Virus record (IMG/VR): IMGVR_UViG_3300032050_000182
Span: 1 to 53,456 of that record
Strand: one strand, 5' to 3'
Origin: a virus
Taxonomy: Duplodnaviria > Caudoviricetes
Length of the DNA stretch: 53,456 bases
Shown: positions 582 to 30,462 of the stretch, piece by piece
How the letters are laid out: the number at the start of each line of letters is the position of its first letter
How positions within the stretch are numbered: the first letter of the stretch is position 1
The notes under the pieces: model-generated
What the model saw: only the letters and a program-made list of their open reading frames with translations
The model's database searches: none
Told to the model about the DNA's origin: nothing
Translations under genes and position numbers: made by a program

Positions 582-3500
582 ATGCCTACCTACGAGATTA
601 CTGGGCCGGACGGTAAAACTTATAGTATCGATGGCCCGGAAGGGGCTACTCGTGAGCAGGTCATTGCGGCTATTCGTAGGCGGCTCGGCGTACAGCAGGC
701 GGGTTCAAGGCAGGCTGGCTTTGTCGAGTCCTTCAAAGAAGCCGCTACCACTCTAAAGGCTGCACCTGCTGCGGCTAAGTTTGCTGCTGCCGATACTCCT
801 GAAGAAAAGGCCGCTACTCGTAAGGCGTTGCTTGAGCAAGCCGGTGGCGATGAGTTCGACACGACGGCGTTTGCCGATATCAAGGATCTACCGGGTGCGC
901 TTGACTGGGCTAAGCAAGTACTTGGCTCGTCGGCAGGTGCATTGGCTGCACCCGCTTTGGCTGGCGTGGCTACTGGCCCGATTGGTGGCGTGGCTGCACT
1001 TGGCACTCAATACACAACGTCGAATCTTATTCGGCAGGCAGAGGAACAAGAGCGAGCCATTGCCGAAGGCCGTCAGGCTGAAGAGACCTCTGTTGGCAAA
1101 GCGATTGCCGGTGCAGGCGCGTCCACGGCGTTGGACGTTGTTGGCTTCAAGTTCTTCCAGCCCCTGTTTAAATCATTCCCGTTGGTTGGAAAACTCTTTG
1201 GCGAGAGTGGTGAGAAAGGCGCTGCGGAAGCTGGCGATAAAATTAAGCAGGCCATAGAAAACAAATCGCTCACGTTCAAGGGCGGTGTTGCTCGTGGCAT
1301 AGCCGAGGGTGTGGCTTTTGAAGTCCCGCAAGAAATCGCACAGACCGCGATTGAGCGTTGGCAGGCTGGCCTGTCCCTGACTGACTCTGAAGCCAAGAGT
1401 GAGTACATCGAAGCCGGTGCTGGCGCGGTTCTCCTTGGCGGTGGCCTTGGTGGTGCGTCTGGCTTTGTCAGTACTCGTAACGAGAAGCGCAGGGCTGAAG
1501 AAGCATTGCGTGAGAAACAACTTGCTGACGAGAAGGCTAAGAGAGAAGCGGCGGAAGCCGCCCGAGCAGCGGCAGGTGAGCCTGTATCGGCTGAGACAGC
1601 CGCAGAGAAACTTGAGCCTGCGAAGATTGATAATACGCTGCTGGCTAATGCCGAGCGCGTTGTTCGTGAGTTTGGCAACGAAGTAAAGGTAAGCGACCAC
1701 GTAAACAAGTTGGTTGATGAGCTTGGCCTGTCGGTCAAGGATGCCAAGAAGACTCTTAGGGAACTACAAAAGAACAAGATCATCTCTTTGAAAGACGGTA
1801 AGTTTACAGTTAACGCGCCCGAAGTTGATGTGCTGCCCTACGTGGGCAAAGAAGGCGAGACTGATTTAGAAGAAGTTGTAACGGATGAAACCGCAGCACA
1901 AGCCCAAGCCGCACAACAAGCACAACAGGAAGCCGCTCCTACCGGAGCACAGGCTGCTGAAACTGCGACTGCCGCTGGAGAACCTGCTGCCGTTGAAGTT
2001 GGCACAGCAGCCCCAACTGAGATTGCAACCACTGAAGGAGTACAACCTGATGAGTCCGTTGCAGGAATTGCAGATGTCACTGCTGAACCGACTGACGTTG
2101 GAGCAGGTGCAGGAGGCGTTGGAGTGCCTCCATCGGGATCAGTTGCCGCAGGATCAGACCTTGAAGGAACTGAAACTTCAGGATTGGGGGCTGCTACACC
2201 TGCTGCTGAGCGACTTGATGTCGGAGCGGAGGCATCTCAGCCTGCATTAACTAAGAAAGCGCAGGCTCAGGCAGAGGTTGTTCAGCGTAAGGAGCAGCGC
2301 AAGGTTGCCCTGAATGAGTTGACGGTCAACTTAGACAATCTAACTACGCTTCTGCCTGAAGATGCTGAGCAAGATACTGTTAGAGAAATTGCTGCTCTTG
2401 CCAAAAAGCTCGGTGCTGTCTATACGCAATTTGAGCGTCTCCCAAAAAACAAGACCGCTGCATTAGATAAGAAAGAATCTGCTCTTGATGCACAGATCGT
2501 ATCTATCCGTAACAGGATCAACTTCCTGACCGATCTTGTAGTAGAGCAGGGTAAGCCGTTCAAGAGCAAGGCTGAACTCGATGCTGAACTGAAGACGAAC
2601 GAGGCTGAGGCACAGCGCCGTGCTGCCCGTGAAGATGCGGGTGGCTTGTCTGCGACTGAAAAAGCGGAGCCTTTCAACCTTCAACTAGAAGCGCAACTGC
2701 GTAATGGCGTTAATAACGCTATCGACTTCATATCCCAAGACGTTGATCAGAGCCGAAGCGTTCTTCTGGCTCAGCCGCGCAAGCAAGTCATGCAGGATGT
2801 CAAGCGGGGCAAACCTGCTCTTGCTGAAGACATCACAGATACTATCGTTGAGGCCAAGCCTGCGATTGGTGGACGCCGCGTTGAAGCGGATGAAAAGCGC
2901 CAGATAGGTATTAAAGTATCTGAGGTTCTGTCAGGTCTGACAGAGCTTCTTAGCCGTGTCAGTTTCCAAGACTCTGCGGTGCAGATTGAAGGTGACGCAA
3001 ACACAGATCCAAATGTGTTCACCCGACTGCGGCAGGACAACCGTCTTGCTGAGTATGATCCGAAGACCAACACGTTCTACTTCACACGTGACGGTCTCTC
3101 AAGCAAGGTCTTCCTGCACGAAGCGGTACACGCTGCGACTGTAAAGATATTAAGGGCTTTTGAGACTGCACCAGACAGTCTTACGCCTAGTCAGCGTGAC
3201 GGCGCTGAACACATGATTAAAATCTACACCGAGGCAAAGAAGAAGCTCGGTGGGCGGTTCCGTAATGAGTTTGAGAACGTATATGAGTTCGTCAGTGGCG
3301 TGGCTACCGACAAGAAACTACAGCGCGAACTAGCGAAGATCTCTCGTCCCAATCTCGCCAAGTACACCAAGCGTGTCACGACTCTGTGGAATCAGTTCAC
3401 GGAAGCGTTGGCTAAGATGTTTGGTATTGATAGCCGCAAGGGGACTAAGGGTCGAATCCTCGACGAGAACGTACTTCCTCCAGAAGTCTCCGGCACAAGC

Positions 3501-6500
3501 CGCTTAGTACCGGGCGATGCTGGCTATCAAGGCAACCTGCTGCTTGAGGCATCGCAGGCTCTTCAGTACATCATCTCTGCACCCGAGAAGGGCGTGGATG
3601 TGGCTCCTCTGCCTGCCCGTGGTCGGCGTGGTAAGGGTCAGCGTCTCGTTGCTCCTACCCAAAAGATGACGTTAGAAGAGGCGATTGCTGCTGACACGGT
3701 TAGGTACAAAAAGAAGTACGACAAGCCAAGCACCGTCAAAAAATTGGCTAACTTCTTCTCTGGTCAGGATGGCTACGAGTGGCTTGCCCGTAAGTTTCAG
3801 AACGACCGTCGCCCGTTGGTCTGGCTGCAAGAACAGTTGCGCCGTGCGGGACTACTGAAATATGGCGGTAAGGATGCCAACAACCTGTATGACTTAATTG
3901 CTCTGTCGTCAGGTAAGGCATTCCACAACATGACTCAGTACATGCAGAGCCATTTTGACGACGTTCATAAGGCTATCAAGGACTACGCGAACGCGAAGGG
4001 TATCGATGTAGATACAGCGTTGATCCGTCTTAGCCGGTACTTGACTGCCCGTCACGAGCCTGAACGCAGGCATGTGAAGTATTTGATGAACGTGCCGCTG
4101 AATAATACGACTAAGGTTCGTAGTGCGGTGCTTGGCGTCGAGGGCACCCCTGCGATGCTACGTGAGTTCATTCTCCGTGAGTTGCATAAGCCACAGGATC
4201 TAGTCAGCAACGGCAAAGCCAAGCAATACCGTCAGGTTCTAGAGCAACTCGTTCAGAAGTACAAGGACAAGGACGGCGTAAGCACGACCAAGGCTAAGCC
4301 CGGTTCGATGTCTCTGGACGAGAACGCGCCTGAATACACGGTACTTGGCACGTTGGATAAGGAACTCATTGCCGAAACAATGAGGGATTTCGAAGCTGAT
4401 CAGGCCAATGAAGCAACGGCTGCGTCAATGAAGCAGTTGCTCGACGCTTTAGAAGTCATCAAGGAAAACTCCAAGATGCTGGATCGGGAGGCAAACTACT
4501 GGTCGCCCCCGGTTGATAACATCGTGAACTTCTACGGCTATCAGTACTACGTGCCGTTCAAAGGTAAGCCGCCCAAAGAGACTGATGTCAGCGAAGGCGA
4601 TGAGCGGTTTGAGATTGGCGGCCCCCGTCTGGGTGGCGAACTGTCCGAGGCCGCGCAAGCCGCTGAAGGTCGTATATCCGACTCCGAAAACGTGATCTTG
4701 CAGTTGCTTTCGGACGGTACAAAATCGACGATGCGGGCCGGGCGTAGCGGAGTTACTCAGGCCATTAAGAATCTCATTCAGGATGGCTACATCCGTGGCA
4801 GCAAGAGTCCCAAGGTCGTCAAGTTTGAAGACCGCTATAAGGGATTTGACCCGTCTGAGTTGCGCGGTGAGAACAAGATCTTCCACCACACGCCGGAAGG
4901 CAACATCGAAGTCTTCACCATCAATGATAACGTGATGCGTGATGCCATCCGTCGTGCATATCAGACGCCGAGTCCGTTCATTGAGTTCGCCAACAAGATC
5001 ACGAGCGGCATCGGTCACTTCCACACCCGATACAACCCTGCCTTCTACCCGTACAACTTTGTCCGTGACGCGCTAACCAACGCCTTCACGATGAGTTCGG
5101 AAATGGGGCCGAAAGCAGCGTTCGACTACATCGGCGCTGTGGCTGTACAAGTAGGCAAGATGGGTCTGGTCAAGACGGGTCGTGTTGCCAAAATGTATGC
5201 TGAGGGCCGCGTCTCAGAAATTGAGGCGATGGCTAAGAAAGATCCAGACGTTGCCAACATTCTTGAGTATCTCGAAGAAGGCGGTCGAACGACGTACATC
5301 CAAGGCTTGTCTTTGGAGAGCCAGAAGGAAGAACTTGCCAAGAGCATCGGCAACCAGAAGTACGCACGTACCTCCGAGCAGATCAACAAGTGGGTTGATA
5401 TCTGGGCAGACTCGTTTGAATTCACGAGCCGTGCCGCTGCCTACTCGGTAGCCAAGAGTAACGCTATGGCGCGTGGTGCTACAGAAGCCGAAGCCCGTCA
5501 GGAAGCCGCCGCCTACGCCAAGAACCTCGCTAACTTTGAGCAGGTCGGTGAATACGGCAGAACGGCAGGCGCACTCTTTATGTTCTTCCGTCCGGCTGCG
5601 ACGGGTGCTGTCCGTGCCTTCGACTCAATGGCTCCGCTGTTCCAGAACCTAGAGGCTGCTGAAGCCCGGTTGCCACCCGGCATTCGTGAGAACCCGGAGG
5701 CTATGGCCAAGTTCCGTGAGAACTTCATCAGACAACAGGACATGGCTCGGGCTACGGTCTACGGCCTCCTCGGTGCGGGTGCGACGTTGTATCTCATGGC
5801 TTACATGGCCTCGGATGACGACGAGTTAGGTCGCAACAAAGTCGAGACGGATGACATGGCTCTTTGGACGCGCAACCTGCGCCTGCCGCTTGGCATCATC
5901 GGCAAGGAAGGCTTTCTGCAACTGCCGTGGGGCTTCGGTCTTGGCGCGTTCGGTGCTGCTGGCGCACAGGTAGCGGGCGCTGCCTTCGGTAAAACGTCCA
6001 TGAAAGACATGGCTGTGAACATGACGAACGTAGCCTTGGATTCGTTCATGCCGTTGCCGGTGTCGCGTATCGATCCTACGGAGAACTTCCCGGCGTGGAT
6101 CGTGGACTCCATCGTGCCTTCGGCAGCGCGTCCGTTTGTTGAGTTTGCGATGAACGTCGATGGCCTCGGTCGTGAGATCTACAACAACCGTGCGACCAAG
6201 TACGGTGAAGCCTACACGGGTGGCAAGAACGTGCCTGAACTCTATAAGACGATGGCGCAGGGCATGTTTGAGTTCACAAACGGCGATATCAAAGTCCAGC
6301 CGAACACGTTGTACTTCTGGACTAATAATTACTTAGACGGTATCTCGCGTATCGCGCACAGTGCATACGGCATCGGCCTGACGGCGGCGGGAGATAAAGA
6401 CTTCGATGCTAAGACTGACCTTGTTCTCTTCAGCAGTTTTGTGGGTCGTAAGTCGAACTATGATGGCCGCGAGTTTGCACAGGTAGAAAAGAAGATTGAA

Positions 6501-6794
6501 GACAAGGCCGACACGCTTCGTTCTCTTGAGAACACGGCTAAACTAACTGGTGATGTTGAGTCGCTACGCCGGTACTATGAGCGTTTTCCGAATGACAAGG
6601 CGATTATTTACATCTACAACAAGCAGAAAAATAATCGGCTGCGTAACCTTCAGGAAATACGTAATGCCGTGGATAGTAATAAGAATTACACGCCGAAGCA
6701 GAAGAAAGAAATCATCGATCAAATTGATCTGGAACGAAACTACATCAAGCGCGGCTTGATCGAAACCTTCCGACAGTACGGCGTGAATCCTTAA
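582..6794 (+). CDS. Large polyvalent / internal virion protein with zincin-like metallopeptidase motif and LPD38-like C-terminal region
   Basis: 2070 aa; HEXXH motif FLHEAVHAAT at about 3117-3131; C-terminal LPWGFGLG...RPFVEFAMNVDGLGREIY segment resembles LPD38; last gene of the late arm. Confidence 0.7.
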   Translation: MPTYEITGPDGKTYSIDGPEGATREQVIAAIRRRLGVQQAGSRQAGFVESFKEAATTLKAAPAAAKFAAADTPEEKAATRKALLEQAGGDEFDTTAFADIKDLPGALDWAKQVLGSSAGALAAPALAGVATGPIGGVAALGTQYTTSNLIRQAEEQERAIAEGRQAEETSVGKAIAGAGASTALDVVGFKFFQPLFKSFPLVGKLFGESGEKGAAEAGDKIKQAIENKSLTFKGGVARGIAEGVAFEVPQEIAQTAIERWQAGLSLTDSEAKSEYIEAGAGAVLLGGGLGGASGFVSTRNEKRRAEEALREKQLADEKAKREAAEAARAAAGEPVSAETAAEKLEPAKIDNTLLANAERVVREFGNEVKVSDHVNKLVDELGLSVKDAKKTLRELQKNKIISLKDGKFTVNAPEVDVLPYVGKEGETDLEEVVTDETAAQAQAAQQAQQEAAPTGAQAAETATAAGEPAAVEVGTAAPTEIATTEGVQPDESVAGIADVTAEPTDVGAGAGGVGVPPSGSVAAGSDLEGTETSGLGAATPAAERLDVGAEASQPALTKKAQAQAEVVQRKEQRKVALNELTVNLDNLTTLLPEDAEQDTVREIAALAKKLGAVYTQFERLPKNKTAALDKKESALDAQIVSIRNRINFLTDLVVEQGKPFKSKAELDAELKTNEAEAQRRAAREDAGGLSATEKAEPFNLQLEAQLRNGVNNAIDFISQDVDQSRSVLLAQPRKQVMQDVKRGKPALAEDITDTIVEAKPAIGGRRVEADEKRQIGIKVSEVLSGLTELLSRVSFQDSAVQIEGDANTDPNVFTRLRQDNRLAEYDPKTNTFYFTRDGLSSKVFLHEAVHAATVKILRAFETAPDSLTPSQRDGAEHMIKIYTEAKKKLGGRFRNEFENVYEFVSGVATDKKLQRELAKISRPNLAKYTKRVTTLWNQFTEALAKMFGIDSRKGTKGRILDENVLPPEVSGTSRLVPGDAGYQGNLLLEASQALQYIISAPEKGVDVAPLPARGRRGKGQRLVAPTQKMTLEEAIAADTVRYKKKYDKPSTVKKLANFFSGQDGYEWLARKFQNDRRPLVWLQEQLRRAGLLKYGGKDANNLYDLIALSSGKAFHNMTQYMQSHFDDVHKAIKDYANAKGIDVDTALIRLSRYLTARHEPERRHVKYLMNVPLNNTTKVRSAVLGVEGTPAMLREFILRELHKPQDLVSNGKAKQYRQVLEQLVQKYKDKDGVSTTKAKPGSMSLDENAPEYTVLGTLDKELIAETMRDFEADQANEATAASMKQLLDALEVIKENSKMLDREANYWSPPVDNIVNFYGYQYYVPFKGKPPKETDVSEGDERFEIGGPRLGGELSEAAQAAEGRISDSENVILQLLSDGTKSTMRAGRSGVTQAIKNLIQDGYIRGSKSPKVVKFEDRYKGFDPSELRGENKIFHHTPEGNIEVFTINDNVMRDAIRRAYQTPSPFIEFANKITSGIGHFHTRYNPAFYPYNFVRDALTNAFTMSSEMGPKAAFDYIGAVAVQVGKMGLVKTGRVAKMYAEGRVSEIEAMAKKDPDVANILEYLEEGGRTTYIQGLSLESQKEELAKSIGNQKYARTSEQINKWVDIWADSFEFTSRAAAYSVAKSNAMARGATEAEARQEAAAYAKNLANFEQVGEYGRTAGALFMFFRPAATGAVRAFDSMAPLFQNLEAAEARLPPGIRENPEAMAKFRENFIRQQDMARATVYGLLGAGATLYLMAYMASDDDELGRNKVETDDMALWTRNLRLPLGIIGKEGFLQLPWGFGLGAFGAAGAQVAGAAFGKTSMKDMAVNMTNVALDSFMPLPVSRIDPTENFPAWIVDSIVPSAARPFVEFAMNVDGLGREIYNNRATKYGEAYTGGKNVPELYKTMAQGMFEFTNGDIKVQPNTLYFWTNNYLDGISRIAHSAYGIGLTAAGDKDFDAKTDLVLFSSFVGRKSNYDGREFAQVEKKIEDKADTLRSLENTAKLTGDVESLRRYYERFPNDKAIIYIYNKQKNNRLRNLQEIRNAVDSNKNYTPKQKKEIIDQIDLERNYIKRGLIETFRQYGVNP

Positions 6795-18217: not shown

Positions 18218-18892
18218 TCACATCTCCTTCGCTATTGCCAACCACTCGTCGGCGTACTCAACATTCTGCCAATCCTTAAACCACGGCCCACCACGTGTCA
18301 TGTGTACGGCAATCGGGTTCGGGCAGTCGTTCTTGGTGTGCCAACCTTCTAGGTAGTTGTAAGCAATCGGCAATCCACCAATGTGTTCATCGCCCGTCCA
18401 TCTGAACCGATGCAGATACATACCCGTAGCGATGTTCACGGTCTTCGGCGTCAGGATCTCCCGTACATCCTCATGACCACAGTTGAACAGCATCAGGCTC
18501 GACCAATTCTTTCTCGGATATTGGTGCTGCACAGCCCCGTCCATCTTGGTCTCTTCCTTCGGCTTGTACCGATGCTGCACACACATGACGCTGTATTTTG
18601 GATCGGCGTAGTCCATGATCCCTGCTACATCTCCTCGCCAGAGAAAGTCACAGTCCATGAACAACGCCCAACCCTCGTAGCCTGCGAGATACGGCGTGAG
18701 GAAACGAGTAAAGGAAAACTCTGTAGACGACAGCGGGTCATGCTCCCGCCAGTACAGATTCTTCTCACGCAGATCGCTCTGCTTGATCGGCTTGATGTTC
18801 AGTTCGATGGAGGAGTTACGCGCAAGCGACTCCCGACAGACCTGATACGCAATGTCTTCTCGACTGTCCCAACCAATAAATACTTTCATCAC
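18218..18892 (-). CDS. GT-A fold glycosyltransferase (GT8-like)
   Basis: VFIGWDSRE, STEFSFTRFL, DxD motif DCDFL, RKNWSS, HMTRGGPW. Confidence 0.85.
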   Translation of the reverse strand: MMKVFIGWDSREDIAYQVCRESLARNSSIELNIKPIKQSDLREKNLYWREHDPLSSTEFSFTRFLTPYLAGYEGWALFMDCDFLWRGDVAGIMDYADPKYSVMCVQHRYKPKEETKMDGAVQHQYPRKNWSSLMLFNCGHEDVREILTPKTVNIATGMYLHRFRWTGDEHIGGLPIAYNYLEGWHTKNDCPNPIAVHMTRGGPWFKDWQNVEYADEWLAIAKEM

Positions 18893-20751
18893 ATAGCCTC
18901 AAACAGTTGTTTCCGACTCGGCCCTTTGTAGTGCAGGATCTTCGCACCATCGTGCTTGTTTTCTGGCAGACAGCCGATGACTGACTCCGGCATCTCATGA
19001 TGCGCGTAGCGTTTGCCGAATTCTCTCAAGACCTCCTGATCTCCGTACCACTTCCTAAACTTCTCGGGTAGTTCCCTGTACATCTGCAACATCATTTGCC
19101 ACATACTTCCATCCTTCATGGCAATGGCACAGCCCACGTACGGATACAGTTCATCCAGAGTCTTGCCTTCGTACTCATCGAACCGCATACCACGCTGCTC
19201 GATATTGAAGATAGCGTCCTTACCAAACTCACGGCGGCAGAGTGCTGTGTATTTATCACTCACCAAATCGTTCACCACCACGCGATCCACAAAGATCATA
19301 TCGGTGTCGATGTAGAGTGCGGGTTCTGCGAAGTTCAACCCTGCAAACGCTTTCATGCGTGAGTACATCAAGTTCTCACGATCAACCACAAACTCTTTGC
19401 GGTCAGTGATGCCCATGACATCCGGTGTATCTTTATCCGTACACATGATGATGTTGGCATCTGGGTTGTACCGTAGCAGCGACTTGACCATCTTCTGTGG
19501 ATACGAAATGTCATCGCCCACGTGGAAGAACACAAAGTTATCTCGCACACGTGTGGCTTCAAAGTTGAGCATAAGATCTAATTCGTCCTTGACCTGTTTC
19601 AACTGCAAGTCCCACGGCGCGTTCATGTTCTCGCGCTGATAAACCTTCACCCCGCTGTACCACATACTCTCGTTGCCAAGGCGGTTGTTCCAGTACCAGA
19701 GTTTGTTGGCATCAAGAAGCAAAACATTCTTACCCATCGCACCTGCCAGATGCACCGTTGCACATGATGGCGAGATGATCAGATCACACAATTCAATCAA
19801 CGCAGCCGTGTTCTCCAGATCCAAGAACGTATCAATGTGCGTTGTGATCAGGTTCGGGTGAAAGTCTCGCCCTTCTTCTTGGGCTTTGCCGTACTGAAGA
19901 TTGATGAACTTCACGTGTGGGGTATCTAGTATGGGTTTGAACGCCGCCAAGGGCACGGACTTGTGTTCCCCGATAATCGGAGCGGTACTTGTCCATGCCA
20001 GACCAATCGTGAACGTCTCGCCCAGATCCAACTCCTTACGCAACGCTTCAACGCGATACATATCAGAACTCATGTATACGGTAGAGACGTAATGCGGGAT
20101 GTCATGCACCCGTTTAATAAAGTATTTACCCATGCTTGCGATGGGGATGTGTGAGTCATGATCCGACATCTTGATCTTGGCATTGTGCGGCAGGAACGTG
20201 ACGTTGTTGGCCTTACACCCACGCTGCAACAAGTTAGCCAGACGCATGTCGATCAGGACAGTTATGTGTTCAACCTCACCCGCTAACGCTTCGATCAGGG
20301 ATGCGTAAAGAATCTGATCACCGATGCCCTGCTCCGTCCAAATGATCGGACGCTTCAAGCCAAGGCCACGCTCCCATTGAGGATGTATGGTGGACAGGCG
20401 CGGGGACTGGAACGATTGGCTACCCCATCGTCGCTCATAGCCTTCCCATCCTGCCTTGAAGTCGCCCATCTGTAGCGCGAGCAAACCCAACGTCCACCCG
20501 GCATCGTCGTTCACCGGATCAAGGCGGTTGGCTATCTCGAAATACTTTCTTGCAGGTTCCCACCTGTGCATCTCCCAATGACAACGCCCAGTCTGTAAGG
20601 CAGCCGCAACAAAGATCGGCAAGATTGAGTTCACGTTCTCAAGTAACCCAATGGCCTCGTCATACTTGCCCTGACCTGCTGCTGCCAGACCTTTCTCAAA
20701 GATGTCTTTGGAGAAGTCGTACAGAGTCTTGCCTTTCTTTTCTTCGGTCAT
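18889..20751 (-). CDS. TPR + GT9-like (GT-B) + GT-A glycosyltransferase fusion
   Basis: N-terminal TPR helices; GWEGYERRW, EQGIGDQI, NLQYG, HLAGAMG, WY; C-terminal domain with IDTD, DQEVL, ILHYKG. Confidence 0.8.
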   Translation of the reverse strand: MTEEKKGKTLYDFSKDIFEKGLAAAGQGKYDEAIGLLENVNSILPIFVAAALQTGRCHWEMHRWEPARKYFEIANRLDPVNDDAGWTLGLLALQMGDFKAGWEGYERRWGSQSFQSPRLSTIHPQWERGLGLKRPIIWTEQGIGDQILYASLIEALAGEVEHITVLIDMRLANLLQRGCKANNVTFLPHNAKIKMSDHDSHIPIASMGKYFIKRVHDIPHYVSTVYMSSDMYRVEALRKELDLGETFTIGLAWTSTAPIIGEHKSVPLAAFKPILDTPHVKFINLQYGKAQEEGRDFHPNLITTHIDTFLDLENTAALIELCDLIISPSCATVHLAGAMGKNVLLLDANKLWYWNNRLGNESMWYSGVKVYQRENMNAPWDLQLKQVKDELDLMLNFEATRVRDNFVFFHVGDDISYPQKMVKSLLRYNPDANIIMCTDKDTPDVMGITDRKEFVVDRENLMYSRMKAFAGLNFAEPALYIDTDMIFVDRVVVNDLVSDKYTALCRREFGKDAIFNIEQRGMRFDEYEGKTLDELYPYVGCAIAMKDGSMWQMMLQMYRELPEKFRKWYGDQEVLREFGKRYAHHEMPESVIGCLPENKHDGAKILHYKGPSRKQLFEAM

Positions 20752-20760
20752 AATTTTTCC

Positions 20761-20982
20761 TCAAGCGTCCTTGATATGAATATCAAACATATCTCTCGCC
20801 ACGCAGCCACGCTCATAACAACCGGGGTCAAGAAACTTAACATCCTCTCTCAATCTGTCGAGTTCCTTTTCTTGTTCAACCCAACGTATTTCACTCTGAG
20901 CCAAACGCTCCTCAAGAAATTCAATCCGCGCTCTGAGTTTCTGCTTGGACTCAAAAAAAGATTTTAAGAATTTAATAATCAT
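20761..20982 (-). CDS. Hypothetical coiled-coil protein
   Basis: ATG at 20982 preceded by AGGAG; 73 aa. Confidence 0.55.
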   Translation of the reverse strand: MIIKFLKSFFESKQKLRARIEFLEERLAQSEIRWVEQEKELDRLREDVKFLDPGCYERGCVARDMFDIHIKDA

Positions 20983-21002
20983 GGTCTTCGTATCTCCTAT
21001 GT

Positions 21003-21119
21003 TCACCAGTACTCCCTCCCACCTCTTGATGCACCCCAACTCGGTGGCGGCACGTGTGCCCACTCTCGACGGCGATACTCTTCGCGTCTCTTAAAGAAAT
21101 CTAACAGCCATCTGATCAT
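21003..21119 (-). CDS. Small hypothetical protein (38 aa, MIRWLLDFFKRREEYRRREWAHVPPP...)
   Basis: Below ORF-track cutoff; ATGA overlap with upstream stop, AGGAG RBS, fills the gap. Confidence 0.55.
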   Translation of the reverse strand: MIRWLLDFFKRREEYRRREWAHVPPPSWGASRGGREYW

Positions 21120-21772
21120 GTCATCTCCTGTCGGACGAATTCGATCCTGCTATATGGAATCAGGATCGCGGTTTTGTTTACGTTCCGTGGATAGATCAAC
21201 GTGGTGTTGCTCCGCTCCAGAAGCAACGCATTAGCCACACCCTTCTCGGTTCCCTCAAAGTCATCAAGCACAAAGACAGTATCGCTATACTTCTCTGTGC
21301 TTACCTCGCGCAGATCGTCCTTGGTCAGACGCCCGTCTAGATACACTAGATCAGGCGTAATACCTTTCAGCCTCATCTTTTCAAACATCACATAGGACGG
21401 TGTTAACGGGTATTGATTGATCAGCGGAAGCACTATCTTGATGTCATTGGAGAAGTCGCACGTATGAATGTCTACCTCACCCTTACAAGCCTCGTAGATA
21501 ACATGGGTAGACACGCCGATAAACGTGCCCACCTCTGCTACGACTCGTGGTTTGAAGTAATTGATGATGGTGTAGAGATCATACGCATCGTTGTACGCAA
21601 GAGATCCGGTGTTGTAGTTAGCCTCCACCCGCATCCGGTTCTGGTTGTAGATAATGCTTTCAATCTTCTCGTGTGGGTTGTCTTCATCTACAACTAACTT
21701 CTCATCCATGATCTCCCAGACAATCCTGCTGAATCGATCACGCCCGATCTGTAGGTTGGTGTTCGGGATCAT
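21116..21772 (-). CDS. Class I SAM-dependent methyltransferase (Methyltransf_24-like)
   Basis: AEVGTFIGVST, HTCD, DLVYLDG, VFVLDD. Confidence 0.75.
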   Translation of the reverse strand: MIPNTNLQIGRDRFSRIVWEIMDEKLVVDEDNPHEKIESIIYNQNRMRVEANYNTGSLAYNDAYDLYTIINYFKPRVVAEVGTFIGVSTHVIYEACKGEVDIHTCDFSNDIKIVLPLINQYPLTPSYVMFEKMRLKGITPDLVYLDGRLTKDDLREVSTEKYSDTVFVLDDFEGTEKGVANALLLERSNTTLIYPRNVNKTAILIPYSRIEFVRQEMT

Positions 21773-22221
21773 TTCTCCCCCTCCTTGAGCAAACGATGTA
21801 GTTGCTCAATAAGTTTTGCATATTCAAGTGACTTCACCGGATCATCAACCTCACAGTTAATCACAAGACGATGCGCGGCAATCCGCATAGCCTTGATCAG
21901 TTTTTCTCTTGTGATCGGAACGATATGTTCATCGGGACTAGCAACGTCAAGATCGCTCGGTGGCCAATTCTCCAACTTCATATTAAATTTCAAACCGACC
22001 TGCACCAAAGATTTTTCCAACTCTTCGATTGACTTCCTACCCAAGTTGGGTATGCAGAGAAGTTCCCATCTTTGTTTTTGGACAAGTTCGCCAATCGTGT
22101 TTATCCCACCGGCTTTCAAACAATGACTCAAACGAACTGTTAGCCAAAGTTCATCAACAGGTGCGGTAAATATGTTTGTATACCTTGATAGGATATCTTT
22201 CTTTAAGTCGTACTCGCTCAT
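21769..22221 (-). CDS. Stand-alone RNA polymerase alpha-subunit C-terminal domain homolog
   Basis: PVDELWLTVRLSHCLKAGGINTIGELVQ...PNLGRKS...LENWPP aligns without gaps to proteobacterial RpoA CTD; no alpha-NTD. Confidence 0.9.
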   Translation of the reverse strand: MSEYDLKKDILSRYTNIFTAPVDELWLTVRLSHCLKAGGINTIGELVQKQRWELLCIPNLGRKSIEELEKSLVQVGLKFNMKLENWPPSDLDVASPDEHIVPITREKLIKAMRIAAHRLVINCEVDDPVKSLEYAKLIEQLHRLLKEGEK

Positions 22222-22655
22222 GCGTTCTTCCTCGCGGCAATCTCACGCTGCAAGTACCACGCAGCCTTCTCAAGATCCTGCACCGGATCGGAAGACTTCT
22301 TCCCTGCGCGACTCACATACTTCACGACGTTACCCAGTCGGTAGTTAAGATCTTTGGCTTCGATGAAATCGATAGTCTCAAAGCCACCGGCCTTGTAATG
22401 CGGAGGATGATTCACGGGATCGATTTCGGTTGCTTGTAGTCTGTGTTTCGGCCTTCTCATCTCAATCACATCCAACACTTGCTTCATCTCGGTCACAGCC
22501 TTCACGATCTTCGACTTCTTGGTTTTGTTTTTGTAGTTACGCAGCACCACAGCGATGAGTGCATGGCTGCACTTCAACTTCGCTTTAATCTCTTTGACGG
22601 TCTTACCTTCGTCGTACAACTTACGAATTTGCTCAGATTTATTTACCTTTGACAT
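22218..22655 (-). CDS. HTH + DUF3310 (T7 gp1.7-like nucleotide kinase family) protein
   Basis: DPVNHPPHY...ETIDFI...GNVVKYVSRAGKK...DLEKAAWYL; N-terminal HTH-like segment. Confidence 0.8.
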   Translation of the reverse strand: MSKVNKSEQIRKLYDEGKTVKEIKAKLKCSHALIAVVLRNYKNKTKKSKIVKAVTEMKQVLDVIEMRRPKHRLQATEIDPVNHPPHYKAGGFETIDFIEAKDLNYRLGNVVKYVSRAGKKSSDPVQDLEKAAWYLQREIAARKNA

Positions 22656-22938
22656 GACTTAAAATCTCCTTTCTCAAGTTTTCAACATTAGTTTCATCGA
22701 CGACCAACGCCACGCCACCCGCAGTCCGAATAGCCTTCATGTGCGCGTGTTGTAGTGCAGTCGGGCGTCCACCATTTGCCTTACACTCAATAGCATAAAA
22801 CAACCCTTCTTTACAAATCAAGAAGTCTGGAACCCCTGAGTTCCCGTAACCTCCTGTAACTGGCATCGCATAATATGCGCCCATGTCCTCCAAGATTTTC
22901 TTTACCTTGGATTTAACTTTGCTCTCGGGGGTACTCAT
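22639..22938 (-). CDS. VRR-NUC nuclease / Holliday junction resolvase-like
   Basis: TPESKVK, GVPD, AIECKA, PTALQ, AGG. Confidence 0.85.
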   Translation of the reverse strand: MSTPESKVKSKVKKILEDMGAYYAMPVTGGYGNSGVPDFLICKEGLFYAIECKANGGRPTALQHAHMKAIRTAGGVALVVDETNVENLRKEILSHVKGK

Positions 22939-23357
22939 ACGTCCTCCTTCGGTTTACGTAGCCATTCACTCTTGAGTGAATCCTTATCTTGGCTGTTCAT
23001 GTACACGCAGTAGAACAGTTCATTCACCCGATACCCAACGTCAGGTAGAAACTCCACGCCGGGTTTGAGTGGTGGATACATAAACAACTTGGGCATGCCC
23101 ACTACCTCAAAGTCCTCATTCTCGACCGGCCAGTTAAACCCATTGTTGAACCCATTGATTATGGCTAGACGTTCTTTTAGAAGATCCGGTAAGTTCCTAT
23201 CTGTGAAGTGCATCACAATGTAGTCATCAGCCTTCCCAGTCCACACCTTGTATGTACCCTCCCGCACCTTGACGGGCATACGCCAGATATCTTTTCTCAG
23301 ATCGTAGAACGCATACAGCCTGTCGAACAATCTGTTCTCGCTCAGTAAGTTATCCAC
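22935..23357 (-). CDS. Hypothetical protein
   Basis: In-frame GTG at 23357 after GAGG preferred over TTG at 23369. Confidence 0.6.
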   Translation of the reverse strand: MDNLLSENRLFDRLYAFYDLRKDIWRMPVKVREGTYKVWTGKADDYIVMHFTDRNLPDLLKERLAIINGFNNGFNWPVENEDFEVVGMPKLFMYPPLKPGVEFLPDVGYRVNELFYCVYMNSQDKDSLKSEWLRKPKEDV

Positions 23358-23358
23358 A

Positions 23359-24366
23359 TCAAACCTCAATCATGTAAGTATGTTTCTCTGCCCAGTACGT
23401 AACAGCAGACGCACCCATGTCTCGCCAAGTCGTTGATGCGTGATCTCCGCGAGGGAAGAGTGTGTTCTGTCCCGTGTGTGCCTTCAGCATGGCGAGCGAT
23501 GCCATGACTGATGTACGCAGATCTTCAGGGAGATCGTCGAGACTTTTGTACCACATGCCGCTGCCCAACTGCGGCTTGCCATGCAGCGTACGTTCAGCCA
23601 CGAGACCTCTAAAATCCGTATGCCGATTACGCTTCACCTGATTAAGAAAGTCTTTGCAGATATCAGCAGGACAGTACGTCACGTTGATCCCACCATACAG
23701 ATCATTTGTGATCAGCACCTTGTCACGAGAATAGAACGACTCGACATCTTCAAAGTCGATAGCCCGCTGCTCCTCTAATTGTTTGCGTTCCTTGACTCGT
23801 GAGGCACACTCAGCCCGTGTGTATTGGCTAAGATCTGCACTAGTGATCTCACCTTCTGCGAGTAGTGCAAGTTCAAGCAACAAGTCGCCGTTTATCCGTT
23901 CGTATGACGAATCATTTTCCGTCAATTTCGGATAGTTGTCGTTGAGTACTCTGCTGATCATCTCACTCACTCGCTTGATCATGGCGTGTTCTGCCTGTAC
24001 CACTTCAGCCTTCACTTCATCCTTGAATGAAGTCTTAATCTTGTTGGCCAGATACTTGGGCTTATCACTACGCAAGTCAGCCCTACCTGCATTGACGTAG
24101 GTGTAGTAGTCATGGGCGAATGGATTGCTCGTAAACTTGAGCGCGTAGTACGAACGCTTCTCCGTCTGTTGCCGATAGACGAACCCGATCTGCAACCCAT
24201 CCTCCAATGCAAAGTGCATGTTCCCTGCCTCCGTCAGTTCTGCGATGCGGATCTTTCCTTCCGAGACGTTATGCAGCGCAGCGTACACAGGCCACAACGC
24301 ATGACGAGTGATGGCAAGTTTCTCTTGATCAGAGTACTTACCGTTCAAAAAGAATTGCTCAAACAT
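23359..24366 (-). CDS. Hypothetical protein
   Basis: 335 aa with strong RBS GGAGGTG. Confidence 0.75.
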   Translation of the reverse strand: MFEQFFLNGKYSDQEKLAITRHALWPVYAALHNVSEGKIRIAELTEAGNMHFALEDGLQIGFVYRQQTEKRSYYALKFTSNPFAHDYYTYVNAGRADLRSDKPKYLANKIKTSFKDEVKAEVVQAEHAMIKRVSEMISRVLNDNYPKLTENDSSYERINGDLLLELALLAEGEITSADLSQYTRAECASRVKERKQLEEQRAIDFEDVESFYSRDKVLITNDLYGGINVTYCPADICKDFLNQVKRNRHTDFRGLVAERTLHGKPQLGSGMWYKSLDDLPEDLRTSVMASLAMLKAHTGQNTLFPRGDHASTTWRDMGASAVTYWAEKHTYMIEV

Positions 24367-24577
24367 GATTCACCTCCTCTGCCAAAACCCATTTTTCAGA
24401 ATCTCCAAAGACTTCTTCGACCCACACAGCGAGCGGTTTATGTCCGCTGACGAACCCCTCTACCCACTCTTCCGTGGATTGAGTCAAGCCCCGCACAATC
24501 TCGTCAGCCTTGTCACTTTCGATGTCATCTACTCCATCAAACTCAAACACAACCAACACTTGCATCTTCTTACTCAT
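24359..24577 (-). CDS. Hypothetical acidic protein
   Basis: 72 aa, GAGGTGTGAGATG junction. Confidence 0.65.
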   Translation of the reverse strand: MSKKMQVLVVFEFDGVDDIESDKADEIVRGLTQSTEEWVEGFVSGHKPLAVWVEEVFGDSEKWVLAEEVNHV

Positions 24578-24578
24578 C

Positions 24579-24737
24579 TCACACCTCTTGAGTCCGTAGT
24601 ACTTTCATATCCTCACGCATCTTGCGTGCTTGCTCGATGCGTGCCAAAGTTTTCCTATCCTGTTCAAGAACATAATTAGTCACGTGTGTGCGCTTGAAGT
24701 CAGGTGGAGGGATTAACTCTTCCTCCTTCTTACTCAT
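24579..24737 (-). CDS. Small hypothetical protein (52 aa, MSKKEEELIPPPDFKR...TQEV)
   Basis: Below cutoff; fills the gap exactly between two GAGGTGTGAGATG junctions. Confidence 0.65.
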   Translation of the reverse strand: MSKKEEELIPPPDFKRTHVTNYVLEQDRKTLARIEQARKMREDMKVLRTQEV

Positions 24738-24738
24738 C

Positions 24739-25944
24739 TCACACCTCCATCTTCACAAGCCGACCACTCGGCGGGGTAAAGTCACGAGCCATCGTCACCA
24801 TCCACAGCGTCGGGATGTTCGTCTGCCATCTGATGTTGTCCTCAACGTATCCGTCCGTGAACACAACCAAGCACTCGGCGTTGGAGTTCTCGCTGCATAA
24901 CAGTTCACTCACAGATGAAACCCTAGTTCCACCACCACCCTCGGGCTTCAGCATCGTTGCCAGTCCGTCGTAGTTGTCGCTGAATACTTGCTCACCTCGT
25001 ACCTGATGATCCCACCAGATCACTCGCACCCGATCAGGTGACGCCATGTCGCAGATCGATATCATCTCGGTCGCAAACTCAGTCAACTCACGGCTGCCGA
25101 TACTGCCGGACGTATCGATGGCGATGATGATCTCGCTCACCTTCTCCGCTTCCAGAGTTGGCAAGTAAACATCATCAACCATGCGACGACGATTCATCTT
25201 GCGCCACGTGTACTCATCTCGCCCCTTCGTGGTGGATGACACAAACTCACGCAACTCGTCACGCCACGATACCTTTGGTGTCATCAAGTCTTGGATGACG
25301 CGCGGTACTTTGACGCCAAACTTCCCGGCCAACATCGCACCCTGTTGGATAGCCTCGCTGATCTCGTCGGACAACTTCCGTACATCCTCAACGCTCGCAC
25401 CGGCCAACGCTTCCGCATCATGCTCGTCGAGAGGCTGCATCTCCTCGGGGTTCTTCCCGCTGCCTGTACCTTGTCCACCTTGTCCGTTACCTTTCTTCTT
25501 GCGCTTGTCCATCTCTGCCTTGAGATCGTTGTACACCTCACGCACCGACCAGTTGTGGTACTTGGCATCGTACAGCCCACCTTTCGGCAACTTGACCAGA
25601 TCAGGAGCCTTCTTGCCGATCTCTGTGATGATGTCATTGATCACAAAGTCCATCGCCACGTTAGCGAGTCGCGGGTTCTCCTTCACCAAGTCCATGTGAC
25701 GAGGGATGTGCTTCAAGAACACGTGACCATTCTCGTGCAGCACCAACGCAGATTGCTCGGGCAACGTCAAAGATTGAAAGAACTCACGACCATACCGTTT
25801 GTTCTTGCCATCCGTGTACGCTGTCGGGATGCCGTCTTCGATGGTCGATTCACCCATCAACATGATCCCACCGTACAAACAAGTCTCGGGGTGGCGCATC
25901 AGTCGGATGTGTGCCTTCTTCAATGCTGTGTTTGCGTCAGTCAT
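24739..25944 (-). CDS. DUF2201-like metallopeptidase + vWA domain protein
   Basis: PTAYTDG, HEXXH (LHENGH), MIDAS IDTSGS, GGGGT, VFTDGY. Confidence 0.85.
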   Translation of the reverse strand: MTDANTALKKAHIRLMRHPETCLYGGIMLMGESTIEDGIPTAYTDGKNKRYGREFFQSLTLPEQSALVLHENGHVFLKHIPRHMDLVKENPRLANVAMDFVINDIITEIGKKAPDLVKLPKGGLYDAKYHNWSVREVYNDLKAEMDKRKKKGNGQGGQGTGSGKNPEEMQPLDEHDAEALAGASVEDVRKLSDEISEAIQQGAMLAGKFGVKVPRVIQDLMTPKVSWRDELREFVSSTTKGRDEYTWRKMNRRRMVDDVYLPTLEAEKVSEIIIAIDTSGSIGSRELTEFATEMISICDMASPDRVRVIWWDHQVRGEQVFSDNYDGLATMLKPEGGGGTRVSSVSELLCSENSNAECLVVFTDGYVEDNIRWQTNIPTLWMVTMARDFTPPSGRLVKMEV

Positions 25945-26120
25945 AACGTCACTTCCTCTTGCTTGACGACGATTGTGTAACCCAACTCTTTGATCAGAGA
26001 TAATTCTGTACGAGTGAATGTCCTACGATGTGCGAGTCTTGCCAACAACGCAGCCTTCACGCACTCGGGATAGAACCGCTCTGTCCCATACTGTTCTCGA
26101 CGAGTGATCACGATCTCCAT
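25941..26120 (-). CDS. Small phage protein (59 aa, MEIVITRREQYGTERFYPEC...LGYTIVV)
   Basis: Below cutoff; RBS GGAGGTG; ATGA overlap with the vWA gene. Confidence 0.7.
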   Translation of the reverse strand: MEIVITRREQYGTERFYPECVKAALLARLAHRRTFTRTELSLIKELGYTIVVKQEEVTL

Positions 26121-28292: not shown

Positions 28293-28338
28293 AGTATAGG
28301 ATAAGTTTACATATAAAGCAAGAGTTTGGGTAAAAAAG
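28293..28338 (-). promoter_or_regulatory. Sigma70-like early promoter with T-tract upstream element
   Basis: TTGCTT-17 nt-TATACT; upstream CTTTTTTACCCAAACTC. Confidence 0.75.
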
Positions 28339-29552: not shown

Positions 29553-29598
29553 ATTATAAGGCTTCTTTACGTTTATGTCAAGACTTTGGATAAAAAAG
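29553..29598 (-). promoter_or_regulatory. Perfect-consensus sigma70 promoter with T-tract upstream element
   Basis: TTGACA-17 nt-TATAAT; upstream CTTTTTTATCCAAAGTC. Confidence 0.9.
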
Positions 29599-29635: not shown

Positions 29636-29987
29636 TGTTCCATCTGTTCCAAGTTGTTCCAGATTTTGAACTTATACAATGCTACAAAAGGAGGGGGGTG
29701 GAGGGTAAGTAAGTTCTTGTTTTTATTAATATTTATTAGTAGTAGTAGTAGATGTTCAATCTGTTCCATGAAAAATGAGGTATACAAATGATTTGATGAT
29801 TTTTTGTGTGGGGGTTGACGCATCGCGGTGCAGACTTCCCCGACTTGGTTTTTACCCCCCTCCCCCTGCCCTACCTCGAAAAACGTGGAACATTGGAACA
29901 GATTTACACTATTCCTTTGCAAAACAATGACTTACCGATTTTGAACTTGGAACAAAACTTGGAACAAGTGTGGAACAACGTGGAACA
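29636..29987. repeat. Inverted clusters of TGTTCCA/TGGAACA heptamers; candidate replication origin
   Basis: TGTTCCA at 29636, 29645, 29655, 29762; TGGAACA at 29886, 29894, 29948, 29960, 29971, 29981; AT-rich tract at about 29718-29750. Confidence 0.7.
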
Positions 29988-30177
29988 GACCATCATTTTA
30001 TGACGTTATAAAACGATGCGGGACTTTGTGGGTTCAATTCACTTGGAGGTGAAGTCTTATTTAGTGGAACCCCTCTCGCTTAATGGCTTAACTAGCCATG
30101 CCTCTCCCCGCGCAGCCACGCACACGCGACACGCGCGCACAAACAAGGAACTGGTTTCTTATGCGAAACGCAGGCAC

Positions 30178-30210
30178 AAAAAAACCCCGGCAACCTTGCG
30201 GCTACCGGGG
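30178..30210 (-). terminator. Intrinsic terminator
   Basis: CCCCGGTAGCC-GCAA-GGTTGCCGGGG then T7. Confidence 0.85.
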
Positions 30211-30218
30211 CGCGTCGT

Positions 30219-30407
30219 TTAAGCAAAGTTGAATTCAAGTTGCTTTGCTTCGTGGTCGAGTCTGTAGAGCACTTTGAATTTGACGTCGTTGCGGGTCAGT
30301 ACATCCATCCAAAAGAGCAGTTGCTGGAATGACAACTCTTTGACAACTTCACCATCGATGGTGGATTCAGACTGAACTATGTAGACAACATTCTTTCCGA
30401 TTGGCAT
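30219..30407 (-). CDS. Small early protein
   Basis: 62 aa, RBS GAGG; ends KQLEFNFA. Confidence 0.65.
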   Translation of the reverse strand: MPIGKNVVYIVQSESTIDGEVVKELSFQQLLFWMDVLTRNDVKFKVLYRLDHEAKQLEFNFA

Positions 30408-30427
30408 AAGAACCTCTTAAATGAAGA

Positions 30428-30455
30428 GACCCGGTAACCTTGCGGCTACCGGGTC
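30428..30455 (-). terminator. Second copy of the GCAA-loop hairpin, weak U tract
   Basis: GACCCGGTAGCC-GCAA-GGTTACCGGGTC followed by TCTT. Confidence 0.55.
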
Positions 30456-30462
30456 GAGTGGG

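Follow-up and report, generated by a model that had tools for sequence, protein, structure and literature searches.

The DNA analysed here (hereafter the window) is the entire IMG/VR virus record IMGVR_UViG_3300032050_000182, a Caudoviricetes contig of 53,456 nucleotides (nt), or 53 kb, with an estimated completeness of 85%. It carries a gene for a 150-amino-acid (aa) protein (Table 1) in which a stand-alone homologue of the C-terminal domain (alpha-CTD) of RpoA, which is the alpha subunit of RNA polymerase, is joined to a predicted two-helix hairpin. NusA, UP elements and the majority of class I activators all act on bacterial RNA polymerase (RNAP) through this domain as their hub. Sequence comparisons and predicted models point tentatively, with a probability of roughly 0.4, to a tethered binder of A/T-rich promoter-upstream DNA that would compete with the host alpha-CTD.

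The RNA_pol_A_CTD profile of Pfam (PF03118), which an earlier note on this DNA had proposed as a check, scored residues 18-72 at 62.8 bits (E 2.5e-17) against a cut-off of 23.8, so that by a score above the gathering threshold the protein belongs to this family. The E. coli alpha-CTD ranked first in a phmmer search of PDB sequences (1xs9_D, E 8.7e-20), and the claim of a phage-encoded stand-alone alpha-CTD homologue was borne out by both searches. The E. coli RpoA chain has 329 aa, and its residues 248-326 pair gap-free with query residues 13-91 at an offset of +235, under which the equivalences previously listed by eye all proved correct: W26 corresponds to E261, R30 to R265, H33 to N268, C34 to C269, Q50-R51-W52 to 285-287, N59 to N294, G61 to G296, K63 to K298 and S64 to S299, and R62-K63 take the places of K297-K298. 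When the family profile was compared with 60 full-length RpoA sequences by hhalign (probability 99.9, E 6e-37), query residues 12-93 fell on RpoA 246-327 of 328, which indicates that the captured piece extends to the natural RpoA C-terminus. Residues 12-93 are an RpoA alpha-CTD homologue, and chance is excluded.

The AlphaFold2 model, built on 11 family sequences, has a mean predicted local distance difference test score (pLDDT) of 76.8, with 82-86 in the alpha-CTD part, and it presents the compact double helix-hairpin-helix (HhH) fold of the domain. Foldseek superposed the predicted model on 3n4m_B, 3n97_B, 3k4g and 1lb2_B from the PDB with a root-mean-square deviation of 0.8-1.0 A over 70-73 columns and target-normalised TM scores of 0.83-0.93; the best superpositions were 3n4m_B and 3n97_B (0.92-0.93 over 72-73 columns), and 3n4m, 3n97 and 1lb2 are DNA-bound E. 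coli alpha-CTD structures. Beyond the alpha-CTD helices, the model continues with a low-confidence stretch and then with the two helices of the tail (Table 1), which are 18-22 residues long in the predicted models, and the helical tail of about 55 aa described in the earlier note is thereby upheld. The same two-helix hairpin was predicted when the tail was folded alone.

The hairpin is the family-defining novelty. Searched alone against 1.84 billion protein representatives, the tail returned two matches, both fused to an alpha-CTD; the tail-only model matched nothing in the PDB by fold at E <=0.001 (best E 1.9, generic helical hairpins), the ESM Atlas search with the tail gave no usable match, and a Pfam scan of the protein at E up to 1 gave PF03118 alone. 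Five tail columns are invariant in an alignment of 20 sequences (L108, C123, P128, Y134 and L145) and R113, A115, D126 (18/20), D127 (19/20), K130 and L137 are nearly so, while the linker differs in length among subfamilies through gaps and insertions. In no fewer than 75% of the members, a hydrophobic face spans about 240 degrees around the first tail helix, more than a lone hairpin would bury, and the hairpin therefore looks as if it packs on further helices, either of its own copies or of a partner. When two copies of residues 96-150 were modelled together, the homodimer scored 0.02 against a mark of 0.42, the fold of the partner itself being uncertain in this prediction.

Two sources within the rpoA region were considered for the tail. 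Ribosomal protein L17 came into view because rplQ follows rpoA and because one tblastn match (H4) ran from the alpha-CTD into L17; it was rejected by hhalign against 61 L17 sequences (probability 0.1, E 0.49), and an origin from another RpoA part, such as the dimerisation helices of the N-terminal domain (alpha-NTD), was likewise rejected (hhalign probability 0.2). The tblastn search concerned matched 21 records of a phage collection, of which H2, H4, H5 and H18 (4/21) were examined: a bacterial rpoA operon is present in H2 and in H5, H4 holds a bacterial rpoA 3′ end followed by L17, and H18 is a true phage alpha-CTD protein. H1-H5 (AFYI01000003.1, CAKLQH020000003.1, MT839537.1) are filed as phage and hold bacterial rpsD-rpoA-rplQ operons, so that these alpha-CTD matches represent contamination; the 86% coverage of H4 arose because its alignment continued past the rpoA stop codon into L17.

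Relatives of the whole protein form a distinct family. A length-restricted search returned 10 clusters, and a profile search gave 2304 matches with E no higher than 1e-5; among the 120 that were listed, P0001-P0017, P0019 and P0020 alone cover at least 86% of the query (about 19 clusters), and the remainder match over the alpha-CTD only, many of them carrying an alpha-NTD and representing RpoA fragments. All 19 other tabulated members carry PF03118 according to precomputed assignments, and eight that were rescanned, including P0010-P0012, P0016, P0017, P0019 and P0020, scored 74-84 bits. Their common architecture is an alpha-CTD, a variable linker and a two-helix hairpin with C123, P128 and Y134 invariant, and the members sit on viral contigs. 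The gene order VRR-NUC-like nuclease, DUF3310 protein, alpha-CTD protein was constant in every locus compared, which span four divergent phage lineages, and this synteny holds where the alpha-CTD protein is about 40% and its neighbours 50-75% identical. With ratios of nonsynonymous to synonymous substitution (dN/dS) of 0.09 against the related locus L002 and 0.19 against L004, this is by sequence a real phage gene under purifying selection.

The host origin of the domain, together with the bacterial rpoA contamination behind several "phage" collection matches, would fit a functionless fragment of host DNA or an assembly chimera. Such an origin has a negligible probability, as it is opposed by the low dN/dS, the 19 clusters of the same architecture and the synteny in divergent viral contigs, as well as by an identical 1101-nt contig spanning the alpha-CTD gene in an independent lake-water run and by translational coupling to phage genes on both sides, where ATGA stop/start overlaps tie the gene to its two neighbours.

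Counts of residue conservation refer to the 20-member alignment (the window protein and 19 relatives), except those for R255, which come from an 11-member alignment (A1). The 265, 261 (sigma region 4) and 287 (activator) determinants are taken as defined in passages of PMC1874639, and R265 is the minor-groove contact to UP elements in the part of PMC3694059 that treats it. R265, C269, G296, K298, E288 and E302 (E. coli numbering) are kept in 20/20 and K297 is K or R in 20/20; N268 is N in 16/20 and H in 4/20, N294 is kept in 16/20, and S299 is S in 17/20, T in 2/20 and C in 1/20. In the numbering of the window protein, the invariant domain columns are L25, T28, R30, C34, V47, E53, G61, K63, E67, L72 and L77. 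On the other hand, position 261 is E in 11/20, W in 5/20, P in 2/20 and Y in 2/20; T285 is kept in 13/20 and E286 in 10/20 (T285-E286 together in 10/20) while 287 is free; K271, E273, positions 273-277, 304, 315 and 317 vary among the phage members; and R255 is kept in 0/11 (A in 10, K in 1). Across 62 distinct host RpoA sequences of Burkholderiales type, these columns do not vary. The residues of the DNA-binding 265 determinant are thus kept and the 261 and 287 determinants relaxed in the family, and this fixation of DNA-contact residues against the drift of other surface residues was counted in favour of DNA binding. The earlier note had spoken of rewired contact surfaces, which is true of the window protein (E261W, and TEV to QRW at 285-287) but applies to its own subclade only, given E261 in 11/20 and E286 in 10/20.

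The favoured mechanism would run as follows. The phage gene would derive from an rpoA of beta/gamma-proteobacterial type, whose 3′ end would have supplied the end of the interdomain linker and the alpha-CTD up to the last RpoA residues, and this piece would have been joined through a flexible acidic linker to the new two-helix hairpin. The alpha-CTD part may still bind at UP-element-type sites, in the minor groove of the A/T-rich DNA that immediately precedes promoters, and the hairpin may serve as an anchor that raises the local concentration through self-association or docking on a partner, a tethering that would mimic the alpha-NTD dimer holding two alpha-CTDs. The alpha-NTD profile PF01000 matched nowhere in the 53-kb record (the control matched in 14/14 genomes); without an alpha-NTD the protein cannot enter RNAP as a normal alpha subunit, and a free protein would then compete with the host alpha-CTD for UP-type sites. 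UP-dependent promoters, both the host rRNA-type ones and two boxed early promoters of the phage itself, would be damped and transcription during infection shifted. A narrower version, possible but doubtful, is that the hairpin self-associates to give a minimal "alpha2 mimic", in which two alpha-CTDs would be tethered on a small helical bundle without the RNAP-assembly surface, made from the early leftward operon and saturating UP-type sites on host rRNA-class promoters and the two boxed phage promoters.

These promoters had been singled out in the earlier note, and both of them are genuine, with an identical 20-nt box upstream of each. A perfect TTGACA-17-TATAAT occurs once in the window against 0.01 expected, and the identical box, made of a T-tract and an A-tract and ending in the first -35 bases, occurs twice, again against 0.01 expected. 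The second promoter shares its strand with the alpha-CTD gene, from which it is separated by about 6 kb on the upstream side; it was not called by the promoter scan, as its -35 element matches in 3/6 positions. The two promoters head a block, running from about 31080 down to 6978, in which every gene is on the minus strand, and the phage appears to rely on host sigma70-type promoters. The two boxed promoters are candidate targets of the alpha-CTD protein. Near them, the gene-poor stretch 29923-30462 holds two near-identical GC-rich hairpins on the minus strand (30184-30211 and 30428-30455) with 12-bp stems and the same GCAA loop, and the former, followed by a T-run, looks like a terminator.

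Several observations weigh against promoter-upstream competition. The shared box was found in the window alone and not in the related loci, most of which stop short of this region, and the gene lies within a replication/recombination block with no obvious regulators adjoining. The surface around 265 is reportedly also a contact of NusA-AR2, so its conservation does not single out DNA; judging from the title of Schweimer 2011, the AR2 site on the alpha-CTD is said to be the UP-binding surface itself. Moreover, D258 (17/20), E259 (17/20), E288 (20/20) and L289 (17/20) stay conserved, and there may be a constraint beyond DNA binding, as for a protein working inside the initiation complex. As for the tail, its identity is 88% among close relatives compared with 68% for the domain, whereas in distant subfamilies the tail is 25-36% and the alpha-CTD 50-58% conserved. 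Between the window (21772-22173) and L004 (6001-6453), synonymous divergence (dS) rises from 0.33 for the tail to 1.97 for the alpha-CTD, a contrast that points to a recombination joint within the gene near the linker, and the close-range conservation of the tail reflects in part a mosaic history.

The conserved residues around 261 and 288-289 also speak for an extra, RNAP-docked alpha-CTD, whose hairpin would bind host core RNAP, sigma or the alpha-NTD and recruit RNAP to phage promoters, so that the protein would act as a positive factor or surrogate subunit. The tail as a family signature within one shared architecture, the sigma-facing 261 patch that is partly kept (with E261 in 11/20), and the upstream A/T box of the two early promoters would all agree with such a role, as would the absence of a detectable phage RNAP or sigma factor: sigma70 regions 2 and 4 had no match in the 53-kb record, nor had a T7-like RNAP (PF00940), a profile whose control matched nowhere either. 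We nevertheless regard docking as unlikely, because R255 of the 261 patch is lost throughout A1 and because the tail resembles no known RNAP-binding module in the Pfam and PDB fold searches, nor any stretch of RpoA by hhalign.

Alternatively, the protein could act as a decoy for proteins rather than DNA, titrating alpha-modifying or alpha-cleaving enzymes, class I activators or NusA (AR2 or its N-terminal domain). Titration of NusA or activators was the second half of the decoy role put forward in the earlier note, the first half being occupation of UP elements. In 3/3 genomes whose RpoA best matches the phage domain, the encoded NusA has two AR repeats at its C-terminus, the AR2 site reportedly overlaps the conserved UP-binding surface, and competition for NusA AR2 is described in passages of PMC7171158. 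Such titration is very unlikely all the same, since the activator patch is unconserved (287 free, E286 in half of the sequences, 315/317, K271 and E273 variable) and a simple sponge leaves the conserved anchor and linker unexplained.

The gene neighbourhood raises yet another reading, in which the protein serves the replication/recombination module as a generic (HhH)2 DNA-binding accessory, for instance as a partner of the VRR-NUC-like nuclease or of the DUF3310 protein, with no role in transcription. The constant order of these three genes fits it, relatives of the protein have weak HHH_5 and RAD51D_N matches, and the PHROGs search assigned the protein to no family, giving only a marginal match to the endonuclease family phrog_33635 (residues 12-78, E 0.082). 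This is quite unlikely, however, as the domain is 50-59% identical to true RpoA alpha-CTDs and keeps the UP-contact set beyond the HhH glycine loops, and as other viral proteins pair the alpha-CTD with sigma region 4, a transcription module.

The source of the domain is supported by sequence as beta/gamma-proteobacterial, although the tree singles out no donor. Over residues 17-92 identity reaches 50-59% with the best Burkholderiales RpoA, 45-55% with Salmonella and 45-57% with Acinetobacter. The best 80 loci of a pattern-biased genome scan were nearly all from Burkholderiales, and when 401 genomes were sampled evenly across the phylum (including one unpublished genome, G384), 388 of which matched, the seed Ottowia still came out on top (81.3 bits, 56%). 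In a tree of 81 columns the phage sequences form a clade of 10 rows (support of 96 in the Shimodaira-Hasegawa-like approximate likelihood ratio test) on a long branch outside every beta/gamma RpoA row, and its end branches measure 0.1-0.6 compared with a median of 0.019 for host alpha-CTDs. The earlier note had taken the LENWPP ending (residues 83-88) to point to a proteobacterial host; closeness to beta/gamma RpoA agrees with this, but the case is weaker than stated, since no donor is singled out, and the donor lineage need not equal the present host.

Comparison with known systems places the protein in PF03118 but not among RpoA orthologues. It resembles the RpoA alpha-CTD over the whole domain to the natural C-terminus, in fold and in R265, C269, G296, K297, K298 and S299; it differs in evolving far faster, in having lost R255 and in the added orphan hairpin. 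It starts in the region equivalent to the RpoA linker, with no PF01000 or PF01193 domain ahead, and phage genes adjoin it, whereas real rpoA loci show S4-rpoA-L17; the protein-contact surfaces at 261 and 285-287 are, as noted, not kept in the window protein.

Other phage proteins also contain stand-alone or fused alpha-CTDs, and the nine read from other IMG/VR loci (9/9) score above the Pfam cut-off; what they add to the domain is sigma70 region 4, another alpha-CTD or an unrelated tail, and the C123/D126-D127-P128/Y134 hairpin was found in the window family only. One of them (L007:5602-6225) joins sigma70 region 4 to one alpha-CTD (33.7 and 69.5 bits) and another (L015:5539-6810) joins sigma70 region 4 (22.6 bits, under the cut-off) to two alpha-CTDs, so that two promoter-upstream recognition modules of the holoenzyme are united in one chain; P0018 has a Cys-rich N-terminus followed by two alpha-CTDs. 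The cultured Herelleviridae member Bacillus phage vB_BmeM-Goe8 encodes near its genome end a 210-aa "RNA polymerase subunit alpha" (Goe8_c00050, L137:1060-1692) with an alpha-CTD-like segment, and its record holds two matching places. Erythrobacter phage vB_EliS-L02 ORF40 is annotated as an alpha-CTD protein in a passage of PMC9127768. A full-text literature search, with most subscription journals outside its scope, returned no functional study of any phage alpha-CTD protein. Small phage alpha-CTD proteins are thus already auto-annotated, and the alpha-CTD-plus-hairpin family is a new variety of them.

The two-helix tail with its acidic turn (D126, D127) also recalls the secondary-channel factors GreA/GreB, DksA and TraR, which have a helical hairpin with an acidic tip. 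The tail helices are short (18-22 residues), the tail gave no Pfam match at E up to 1, and no zinc-binding or globular domain accompanies it, so a place among these factors is not indicated; as a helix cap, moreover, a D-D-P turn is nothing unusual. As for phage inhibitors, ADP-ribosylation of alpha R265 by T4 and phage G1 gp67 disable the alpha-CTD/UP contact according to the relevant part of PMC3694059, and cleavage induced by LUZ19 Rac does so according to that of PMC7552054. The shared outcome, a loss of UP-dependent transcription, would be a hypothetical functional likeness; these factors modify, block or remove the host domain, whereas the phage alpha-CTD protein would compete as a copy. 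Searches of the query in Pfam, PHROGs and the PDB hit no phage inhibitor family, only the alpha-CTD, and involved no direct comparison with gp67, Alt/ModA or Rac.

Table 1 Features of the window around the alpha-CTD gene and its candidate promoters (HTH, helix-turn-helix)
Feature	Positions	Strand	Details	Basis
Alpha-CTD-plus-tail gene	21769-22221	minus	150 aa; stop codon 21769-21771	Open reading frame list, Pfam PF03118, dN/dS
Shine-Dalgarno-like GAGGAAG	22227-22233	minus	5 nt before ATG; AGGA core 7 nt before	Read from sequence
N-terminal extension, residues 1-16	22174-22221	minus	Predicted helix 6-13	Model, alignments
Alpha-CTD domain, residues 17-91	21949-22173	minus	R30, H33, C34, N59, G61, R62-K63, S64	Pfam, phmmer, hhalign, Foldseek
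Acidic flexible linker, residues 92-103	21913-21948	minus	Net charge -4 over residues 89-103	pLDDT <50 for residues 91-101
Orphan helical hairpin, residues 104-150	21772-21912	minus	Predicted helices 105-124 and 128-149	AlphaFold2, alignment
DUF3310 neighbour with HTH-like N-terminus	22218-22655	minus	Upstream of the alpha-CTD gene	DUF3310 66.4 bits, Clr5-like HTH 20.4 bits
218-aa neighbour	21116-21772	minus	Downstream of the alpha-CTD gene	Synteny
Promoter TTGACA-17-TATAAT (perfect) with T-tract/A-tract box	29553-29598	minus	Hexamers 29581-29553; box 29579-29598	
Promoter TTGCTT-17-TATACT with the same box	28293-28338	minus	Hexamers 28321-28293; box 28319-28338	Read by eye

Residues 1-16 match the position of the end of the RpoA interdomain linker and are kept only in the subfamily of the window, the 124-aa and 145-aa subfamilies being without them in the alignments. 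Apart from the genes discussed above, the record encodes a large terminase subunit, a portal protein, a DNA polymerase, helicases, a DUF927 primase-helicase and an exonuclease, together with the VRR-NUC-like nuclease (22639-22938), the DUF3310 protein, a DUF2201 metallopeptidase/von Willebrand factor A (VWA) protein and an AAA ATPase. A 2070-aa reading frame on the plus strand (582-6794) has LPD38 ("large polyvalent proteins", 55 bits) as its single recognisable domain and no PHROG match. The DUF3310 protein, a possible partner of the alpha-CTD protein, lies directly upstream in L004, L005, L104, L107, L110 and L112, and a 219-aa gene intervenes in L002, L003 and L006. Downstream of the alpha-CTD gene there is usually a 218-aa protein and then a tetratricopeptide repeat (TPR) protein; the 218-aa gene is downstream in the window, L104, L110 and L112, upstream in L002, L003 and L006, and absent from L004 and L005. 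It had no Pfam or PHROG match, and a PDB sequence search gave spurious matches to designer pentatricopeptide repeat (PPR) proteins with 0 passing stretches. L104, L110 and L112 share the minus-strand block 18889-21772, which comprises a 620-aa TPR protein (phrog_36377), a 100-aa coiled-coil-like protein and the 218-aa protein, but L004 and L005 lack it.

Near-identical DNA occurs in 15 metagenome runs labelled freshwater, lake water or "fungus", which come from about 10 studies and may include the source sample, and positions 20000-26000 had no DNA match in 50,697 phage records. Contigs from the RNA libraries of three runs cover 22592-23265 or diverged fragments only, with the alpha-CTD gene outside their coverage. 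The relatives whose alpha-CTD protein is 97% identical (L002:5345-6453, L003 and L006) have an upstream 219-aa gene that is 53% identical, with flanking genes at 97-100%, and contigs of a lake-water run break at 21116-21151 and 22193-22292, the block borders, while one contig diverges at 22218. These breaks and the swapped 218/219-aa gene suggest co-existing arrangements.

Many viral contigs carry alpha-CTD modules, joined to varied partners, and the drift of surfaces 255, 261, 273-277, 285-287 and 304 against the fixed positions 265, 269, 296-299, 288 and 302 would provide a natural experiment on what happens once the domain leaves the holoenzyme. A free phage copy would differ in principle from modifying, blocking or cleaving the host domain, being mimicry of a core polymerase domain. 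If the alpha2 mimic were true, it would be a fourth, mechanistically new viral route against the alpha-CTD/UP contact, in which a stolen piece of the polymerase outcompetes the polymerase, and phage "promoter-upstream decoys" would then emerge as a class that also takes in the sigma-region-4/alpha-CTD fusions of other viral contigs.

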